A DNA stretch of 315 nt from Escherichia coli (GCF_003334765.1 NZ_QOWT01000145.1); one strand, 5' to 3'. Shown: positions 1-315, counted from the stretch's first letter. Program-made: numbers and translations. The notes: a model not told the origin generated them from the letters alone.

Positions 1-122
1 ACCCCCGCCGATCTCGATTATCTCCGGCAGTTCGACAGGGAGTGTATCGAACGAAATCTCAGTCCAGGCGGCAGTGCCGATTTGCTAATTGTCACCTGGT
101 TTTTAGCGTCCCTAACCGGGCG

Positions 123-134
123 CTGAATCATTAA
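123..134 (+). promoter_or_regulatory. Candidate Cra (FruR) operator-like site, TGAATCATTAAT, in the leader just upstream of the RBS
   Basis: Seen in sequence: gcTGAATCATTAAT; against the Cra consensus as I recall it (TGAAWCSNTHHW, left half GCTGAA most conserved) it matches 11 of 12 positions, with the left half GCTGAA fully present at 121-126. Established knowledge: acnB is reported to be Cra/FruR-regulated. Consensus matching done by eye only. Confidence 0.35.
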
Positions 135-141
135 TATATCC

Positions 142-145
142 GGAG
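142..145 (+). promoter_or_regulatory. Shine-Dalgarno / ribosome-binding site of acnB (GGAG), 6 nt upstream of the ATG
   Basis: Seen in sequence: cGGAGttaactATG, a purine-rich core with canonical spacing to the only start codon in the frame. Confidence 0.8.
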
Positions 146-151
146 TTAACT

Positions 152-315
152 ATGTTAAAAGAATACCGTAAGCATGTAGCTGAGCGTGCCGCTGAGGGGA
201 TTGCGCCCAAACCCCTGGATGCAAACCAAATGGCCGCGCTTGTAGAGCTGCTGAAAAACCCGCCCGCGGGCGAAGAAGAATTCCTGTTAGATCTGTTAAC
301 CAACCGTGTTCCCCC
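152..315 (+). CDS. acnB: Aconitate hydratase B (bifunctional aconitase 2 / 2-methylisocitrate dehydratase), N-terminal fragment; 3' end lies beyond the window (54 complete codons 152-313 plus 2 nt)
   Basis: Seen in sequence: ATG at 152-154 is the only ATG/GTG/TTG in this frame after the in-frame TAA at 113-115; GGAG at 142-145 sits 6 nt upstream; the frame is open to the window end; Leu is mostly CTG, as in enterobacterial coding sequence. Translation MLKEYRKHVAERAAEGIAPKPLDANQMAALVELLKNPPAGEEEFLLDLLTNRVPP matches my recollection of the E. coli AcnB N-terminus (MLEEYRKHVAERAAEGIAPKPL...) at all but residue 3. Recognised from memory, not from a database search. Confidence 0.93.
   Translation, partial: MLKEYRKHVAERAAEGIAPKPLDANQMAALVELLKNPPAGEEEFLLDLLTNRVP

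Follow-up and report, generated by a model that had tools for sequence, protein, structure and literature searches.

The acnB gene behind citG in Escherichia coli is a rare accessory copy in a probable genomic-island operon

Which gene does this stretch of Escherichia coli DNA carry, and is it the housekeeping copy of that gene? The mechanical ORF list for the whole stretch of 315 nt (hereafter the window) holds a single entry of at least 60 aa, a 63-aa ORF on the minus strand, as the original prediction had said. The same prediction placed the real gene on the plus strand, as an acnB cut by the window edge. Direct reading of the plus strand gave a frame that starts with an ATG at 152-154, is preceded by a Shine-Dalgarno (SD) motif, GGAG, and stays open through position 315; it is missing from the ORF list because it runs off the window edge. 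Its translation, MLKEYRKHVAERAAEGIAPKPLDANQMAALVELLKNPPAGEEEFLLDLLTNRVP, was identical to residues 1-54 of PDB 1l5j_A at 53 of 54 positions (E = 2.4e-29), the sole difference being E3K, and it matched NCBIfam TIGR00117 (acnB) at model positions 1-54 (E = 3e-21), which bears out the predicted near-identity to the first 54 residues of AcnB. Residues 4-54 matched Pfam PF11791 (Aconitase_B_N; E = 3.8e-17), in agreement with the predicted membership of the N-terminal HEAT-like domain. The 54-aa fragment alone scored 74.9 bits, where the curated equivalog cut-off of TIGR00117 is 1287.2 bits; the full acnB of genome L001 (NZ_CM128600.1; L001:20152-22746), in which the window is identical, scored 1715.6 bits. 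Extension in the identical genomic copies gave a gene of 2,598 nt with an 865-codon ORF, the length that had been anticipated. The three cysteine ligands of the 4Fe-4S cluster (C710, C769 and C772 in E. coli numbering), which lie outside the window, are all kept in the full-length protein of the island described below. The plus strand at 152-315 is thus the start of acnB, encoding the beginning of the N-terminal HEAT-like domain. The features of the window are collected in Table 1.

Table 1. Coordinates of the features in the 315-nt window
Feature	Position	Strand	Remarks
citG 3' end	1-126	+	Last 41 codons and TGA at 124-126; PRK10096 match, RefSeq citG
citG-acnB spacer, 25 nt	127-151	+	Read from the sequence; holds GGAG
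Shine-Dalgarno GGAG	142-145	+	Six bases 5' of the ATG (direct reading)
acnB 5' end (accessory copy)	152-315	+	54 codons and 2 bases, cut by the window edge
Accessory-type core of the chimera	82-160 (approximate)	+	Last ~15 citG codons, spacer, SD, acnB codons 1-3
Antisense 63-aa ORF, TTG start	112-303	-	From the ORF listing; shadow of the acnB frame

The minus-strand ORF could itself be a real gene, or a second gene, and its place as the sole entry of the ORF list speaks for it. The NCBIfam search with its product returned no family match, and of 86 acnB genes compared from other strains and species, 25 have one to three stops in the antisense frame; therefore, we regard it as an antisense shadow, as had been proposed. 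It also begins with a TTG without an evident SD, encodes a Ser-rich product of low complexity, and extends over the spacer as well as the citG stop and the acnB start on either side of it. We give the gene reading practically no weight. At 259-274, the minus strand carries a terminator-like hairpin, TTCGCCCGCGGGCGGG, with a T-run, inside the acnB coding sequence; this is within chance expectation (0.3 +/- 0.5), and native acnB has the hairpin too. The promoter and terminator scan of the window gave no promoter-like site and no terminator-like site on the plus strand. The Rfam search of both strands of the window gave chance-level matches only (CRISPR-DR28, E = 8.8; glmS, E = 1.6).

To say which acnB this is, the flanks have to be considered. 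The frame upstream of the spacer, which takes up the first 40% of the window and goes unmentioned in the original prediction, matched NCBIfam PRK10096 (CitG, triphosphoribosyl-dephospho-CoA synthase) with E = 9.7e-17 (window residues 1-41, model positions 255-291 of 292), and the full-length CitG from L001 scored 644.7 bits against a cut-off of 477. In K-12, the order is yacH, a 354-bp intergenic region, acnB and yacL. Alignment of the window with the K-12 acnB upstream region showed no similarity 5' of codon 3, and the spacer does not resemble the sequence 3' of citG in K-12. The gene starts with ATG TTA AAA in the window versus GTG CTA GAA in K-12. At the island loci, acnB has citG upstream at 25 nt and IS remnants downstream, and the native yacH-acnB-yacL synteny is absent. 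On the 3' side of the acnB stop, similarity to the native flank fades within ~30 nt.

The frequency of the junction was determined in 5,426 complete E. coli genomes. The whole window was present in one piece in 35 genomes (~0.6%), from several continents and hosts, and parts of it were matched in every genome. Three separate window matches were found per carrier among the 20 carriers listed, a pattern that would fit one junction along with citG and acnB elsewhere in the genome. A search with acnB only gave two matches in the one carrier listed, and overall its matches exceeded the number of genomes by 40. Taken together, the 21 carrier records with listed counts each have another acnB match besides the junction.

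Could the window nevertheless come from the usual chromosomal locus, with the housekeeping acnB cut off at position 315? Its 54 residues are 98% identical to K-12 AcnB, and the DNA from position 158 is ~99% identical to native acnB. However, citG stands upstream in place of yacH and the 354-bp acnB regulatory region, the full window is confined to the 35 genomes, of which those listed hold further separate matches, and the start codons and the last 8 codons are island-specific. The comparison of the synteny of the island loci with that of K-12 refutes the housekeeping reading, for which we see hardly any room. The acnB in the window is a rare second copy, accessory and differently wired, and not the housekeeping acnB. 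The original prediction was correct in everything that it spelled out and missed on the locus that it implied, as evidenced by citG upstream and by the island operon. The label acnB, which RefSeq already uses, is right for the family but hides the status of a second copy.

The island protein and K-12 AcnB (b0118, PDB 1L5J; a bifunctional aconitate hydratase 2 and 2-methylisocitrate dehydratase) are alike in length (865 aa) and 98.8% identical; the island copy shares the N-terminal HEAT-like domain and the Fe-S ligands and scores above the TIGR00117 cut-off. They differ at the C-terminus, which is RVIFPSVV in the island copy and GVIFQTAV in the native protein, and at residue 3, where E3K results from the ATG-TTA-AAA start. 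The last 8 codons and this start are specific to the island copy. In addition, the island gene lies at another locus, behind citG, without the native promoter or 5'UTR sequence.

Another concern was whether the junction is a chimera of assembly or sequencing, given that citG and acnB are 0.5 Mb apart in K-12. The junction recurs in 35 complete genomes that are independent of each other and in three metagenome contigs, and a homologous one exists in Enterobacter; this has already refuted the reading, whose probability is close to zero. The three contigs came from a metagenome scan with a degenerate junction pattern and were all of the E. coli island type; an intact junction from another genus was not found in that scan. 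An exact junction search in one genome per GTDB species gave 0 matches, and in 80 acnB loci of other species citG was not found beside acnB, save for an unrelated weak match in Serratia. In the plasmid search, acnB and citG were matched only apart from each other, mostly in records that are chromosomes, and the junction itself was not found. In the literature, we found no paper on the operon or on a second acnB in E. coli.

The putative island-borne operon was delineated in three genomes with the full unit (L084, L085 and L086). A GntR/HutC-type regulator gene lies on the opposite strand, followed on the plus strand by the genes for an Amidohydro_2 protein and an MFS transporter, by citC, citD, citE, citF, citX and citG, which encode citrate lyase and the enzymes that mature it, and by acnB. 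The gaps from the amidohydrolase gene to acnB are 31, 5, 14, -4, 10, 3, -26 and 25 nt, and the unit is bordered by remnants of IS66 or IS100. The amidohydrolase is nearest to 4-sulfomuconolactone hydrolase and other LigI-type lactonases, with a score of 136.8 bits that falls below the 500-bit cut-off, and the transporter resembles organic-anion MFS carriers. The part comprising the GntR, amidohydrolase and MFS genes was found in full in 32 genomes and in part in one, always on the chromosome and at least 99.6% identical. Carriers of the full operon include strain ES1/ST38 (NZ_CP133856.1) and strain 10 (NZ_CP048330.1). The promoter and terminator consensus scan of the whole operon gave no convincing site; it returned fewer sites than shuffled sequence and is uninformative. 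At the citG stop, L084 has CGA TGA (L084:10905-10910) for CGC TGA (within window 119-126), a synonymous change; the 99.7% window matches are partly due to this change.

The arrangement in L001 is shorter. Its window match is 100%, and the junction lies inside a genomic island with capsule (kps) genes, a CbtA/YeeU toxin-antitoxin system, IS66 and IS100 remnants, malX and an integrase gene. The gene order there is citF-citX-citG-acnB, with the operon cut inside citF by other island DNA; a cut inside citF was found in three E. coli genomes, L001 and two others. In the region L001:17144-17263, similarity to citF sets in at L001:17217, which corresponds to a point ~13 codons inside the native gene. 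The citF of RefSeq begins there with a foreign N-terminal extension, which overlaps a JAB-domain gene on the opposite strand. The citF of L001 is probably truncated and non-functional. Since the operon is truncated in citF, the acnB copy of L001 may be unexpressed. The second genome with a 100% window match, NZ_OY754357.1, has the regulator, amidohydrolase and MFS genes and the citF-acnB block.

The native E. coli citCDEFXG-citT locus (b0612-b0618) has the same order of cit genes, and the island citC to citG genes are 96-99.7% identical to it in nucleotides. The two loci differ in their surroundings and at the gene ends. The island citC follows the MFS gene at 5 nt, whereas the native gene has a promoter region controlled by dpiBA; the island citG is followed by acnB and the native citG by citT; and the first ~10 citC codons and the last ~15 citG codons of the island are of another type.

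Homologues of the amidohydrolase were used as the route to related clusters in other genera. In Enterobacter sp. (CP135594.1, L092; Logan contig L093), a GntR gene and an amidohydrolase-MFS-citCDEFXG block are followed by an acnB start. The Enterobacter cluster can be aligned with the E. coli operon as a single block of 8,455 nt (79% identity) that reaches from the GntR gene to a point 146 nt inside acnB, and the unique proteins are 75% identical. The Enterobacter spacer behind citG is homologous to that of the window and has the same SD, AGGAGTTAAT; the acnB start is a GTG followed by TTA AAA GAA TAC CGT AAG, which reads M-L-K-E-Y-R-K. The Enterobacter acnB is a remnant of ~146 nt, with an in-frame TAG and an indel, after which similarity to acnB is lost. 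The remnants lie at L093:9094-9240 and L092:17449-17594, and no gene is called there. The clusters share the gene order, a homologous spacer and SD, and 79% identity over 8.4 kb; unlike the E. coli operon, the Enterobacter cluster has a decayed acnB and cit genes that are not E. coli-like. Given this homologous joint, the citG-acnB joint is old in the accessory operon and is not an E. coli rearrangement or an artefact. Given the decay, at least one host has an operon that can do without acnB.

Klebsiella oxytoca and E. fergusonii have the GntR-amidohydrolase module with a CitMHS transporter, and aconitase-family and PrpF genes lie nearby. The K. oxytoca cluster (L094/L095) resembles the E. coli operon in that GntR and Amidohydro_2 genes are followed by a transporter gene and citrate-lyase genes, with an AcnB-like gene adjacent. 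It differs in that the transporter is CitMHS and not MFS, the AcnB-like protein is 72% identical and encoded upstream, oadGAB is present and citX is lacking. Within positions 1-20311 of L094/L095, the genes are an AcnA-like gene, PrpF, a 754-aa aconitase-family gene, Iso_dh, the AcnB-like gene and the divergent GntR gene; after GntR come Amidohydro_2, CitMHS, citCDEFG and oadGAB. We know of no characterisation of this large tricarboxylate-type cluster of K. oxytoca.

With the Enterobacter cluster as a reference, the E. coli copy could be sorted into native-type and accessory-type segments. Over positions 1-77, the window has the native citG sequence of K-12 and E2348/69 without a difference; from position 158 it departs from native acnB at 2 sites only, and it is of native type from 161. 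Between these segments, positions ~82-160 share the Enterobacter states, namely TTG and GTC codons, the LT of the CitG tail, the SD, and TTA AAA at acnB codons 2-3. Since native type at 1-77 and from 161 encloses accessory type, both exchange boundaries lie inside the window, with approximate positions of 77 to ~91 on the left and 160 to ~175 on the right. The CitG tail is ASLTGR before the stop in the window, AQI in native E. coli and TALTRVPVYVK in the Enterobacter accessory cluster.

The same pattern was observed over the whole operon. The island CitG is 3 residues longer than the native protein and differs in its last codons, and the first ~10 codons of the island citC differ from the native gene, with one codon missing. 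The acnB gene has accessory-type ends, an MLKEYRKH start preceded by GGAGTTAA and an RVIFPSVV tail before the stop. We compared the states at 1,064 informative sites, defined as positions at which the K-12 native genes and the Enterobacter cluster differ. The island had the E. coli state almost throughout L085:5700-10800, which is the citC-citG interior, and Enterobacter states outnumbered E. coli states at the edges (24 vs. 12 in the first bin, 23 vs. 7 in the last bin). Compared with native alleles, the island acnB was 95.3-97.2% identical. At thirteen sites, four island acnB alleles agree on a state that none of six native alleles has; 4 of these sites fall within the first 24 nt of the gene and 7 within its last 43 nt. 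Similarity to the native genes is bounded by the ORFs and is weaker at the ORF ends. Judged by sequence, these comparisons show that the E. coli copy is a chimera, with native-type cit and acnB interiors and accessory-type gene ends and spacers. They likewise show a foreign operon scaffold, shared with Enterobacter at 79% nucleotide identity, including the citG-acnB junction. An origin of the island acnB from another Escherichia species was considered separately and rejected, as the identity was 96-97% to E. coli versus 92% to E. albertii and 93.5% to a divergent Escherichia representative.

Alternatively, the junction could have been born de novo in E. coli, from duplicated native segments joined by illegitimate recombination, with no foreign ancestor. 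The identity to native E. coli alleles (98-99% in the cit interior, 95-97% in the acnB interior) would agree with this, as would the near-exact limitation of the native-gene similarity to the ORFs. What decides against it is the homology of the spacer, the SD, acnB codons 1-3, the CitG tail and the citC start to the Enterobacter cluster of the same order; a junction formed in E. coli would not be common to another genus at 79% overall identity. A recent acquisition of the Enterobacter cluster from E. coli is in turn unlikely at 79% identity, with the unique proteins at 75%. A de novo origin is therefore quite improbable, and we keep to the foreign scaffold with exchanged interiors.

We next consider how often the exchange took place. 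In pairwise comparisons of three carriers, the unique genes were 99.6-99.97% identical, the cit block 98.0-100% and acnB 96.1-97.5%; the island acnB alleles, that of L001 included, were 96.0-98.5% identical. L085 and L086 have identical cit genes and acnB alleles that are 2.5% apart. The four island acnB alleles have 138 polymorphic sites, and at 63 of these both states also segregate among six native alleles, a panel that consists of unrelated native alleles and not the carriers' own. Unique genes of at least 99.6% identity, together with acnB alleles differing by up to 4%, suggest repeated exchange with the resident genes; the data thus point to exchange with the resident cit and acnB genes on more than one occasion, as far as allele comparison can tell. 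We put the probability at about 85% that the accessory acnB is the last gene of an island operon with a foreign scaffold, in which the gene interiors were overwritten by resident alleles more than once.

It is established that duplicated bacterial genes evolve in concert by gene conversion, for example tufA and tufB. The present case is alike in that the interiors of the paralogues are homogenised and their flanks are distinct, and in the excess of mosaic variation in the paralogous part. It differs in that a core gene is paired with a copy on a horizontally acquired operon, and in that there are two blocks, cit with 5.2 kb and acnB with 2.6 kb, which here are compared with unrelated native alleles.

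Two further features of acnB variation were seen. In L085 and L086, a patch of ~100 nt at acnB nt ~700-800 (L085:11635-11735) is 12% diverged from the six native alleles; within the panel it is closest to Citrobacter youngae (93%), and it is absent from the L001 and L084 alleles. The patch may have escaped conversion, as a relic, or may have been imported from another genus. The native E. coli acnB alleles (L002 and L087-L091) differ by 2.3-3.2% in nucleotides, which is high for a core gene, and pS between the K-12 and Nissle acnB is ~0.12. Exchange with island copies might contribute to this native diversity.

The island acnB was intact in all seven copies available (L001, L084, L085, L086 and the three metagenome contigs), and all seven share the MLK start and the RVIFPSVV end. 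The pN/pS of the island acnB was 0.02-0.04. The seven intact ORFs and the low pN/pS indicate that the island acnB is probably under purifying constraint. It could also be a functionless passenger on its way to a pseudogene, kept intact by conversion from the native gene. This would be in keeping with the decay of the Enterobacter counterpart, with the truncation of the operon in three E. coli genomes and with the AcnA and AcnB that E. coli already has. Conversion of a passenger is harder to reconcile with seven intact alleles out of seven, with a pN/pS of 0.02-0.04 even between island alleles and with island-specific ends that are conserved in all copies; moreover, K. oxytoca also retains an AcnB-like gene beside the same module. 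On balance, we consider the passenger unlikely and favour constraint.

As to expression, the spacing of the genes suggests that citG and acnB would share a transcript that starts at a promoter upstream of the amidohydrolase gene, and acnB would be translated from its own SD. With co-transcription and its own SD, the island acnB would be expressed with the operon and not under the housekeeping controls. Expression of the operon is presumably controlled by the GntR regulator with an inducer. For native acnB, RyhB pairs at the ribosome-binding site and represses, and apo-AcnB binds a stem-loop immediately 3' of the ORF and protects (PMC4150767). In the island acnB, the RyhB target at the translation start appears to be replaced, and the 3'UTR region bound by apo-AcnB appears to be shortened, largely replaced and altered.

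The gene content and the related clusters allow a proposal for the function. The operon may import a citrate-related tricarboxylate, possibly as a lactone that is opened by the amidohydrolase; AcnB, by its predicted activity, would isomerise the imported tricarboxylate to citrate, and citrate lyase would split the citrate into acetate and oxaloacetate. The nature of the substrate, a citrate-related tricarboxylate or lactone, is our guess. We offer only tentatively, and with less than even confidence, the wider view of a mobile catabolic operon with which some E. coli strains would ferment or assimilate such a tricarboxylate or its lactone, and which repeatedly borrows host-adapted cit and acnB alleles and keeps its own spacers, SDs and gene ends.

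The call of acnB is in itself ordinary; what the analysis adds is that the gene is an island-borne paralogue, that it ends an uncharacterised operon and that its joint with citG is chimeric. ORF lists that drop frames truncated by an edge can promote an antisense shadow ORF. An acnB in a short read or contig may not be the housekeeping gene, with a second copy in ~0.6% of complete E. coli genomes, and such copies bear on typing schemes, on read mapping, and on the calling of copy number and variants in acnB and citCDEFXG. For the biology of E. coli, the locus points to an accessory operon, so far unstudied, in which aconitase B is joined to citrate lyase, and it offers a probable natural case of core genes writing over the corresponding genes of a mobile element, with the two exchange boundaries visible within 315 bases.
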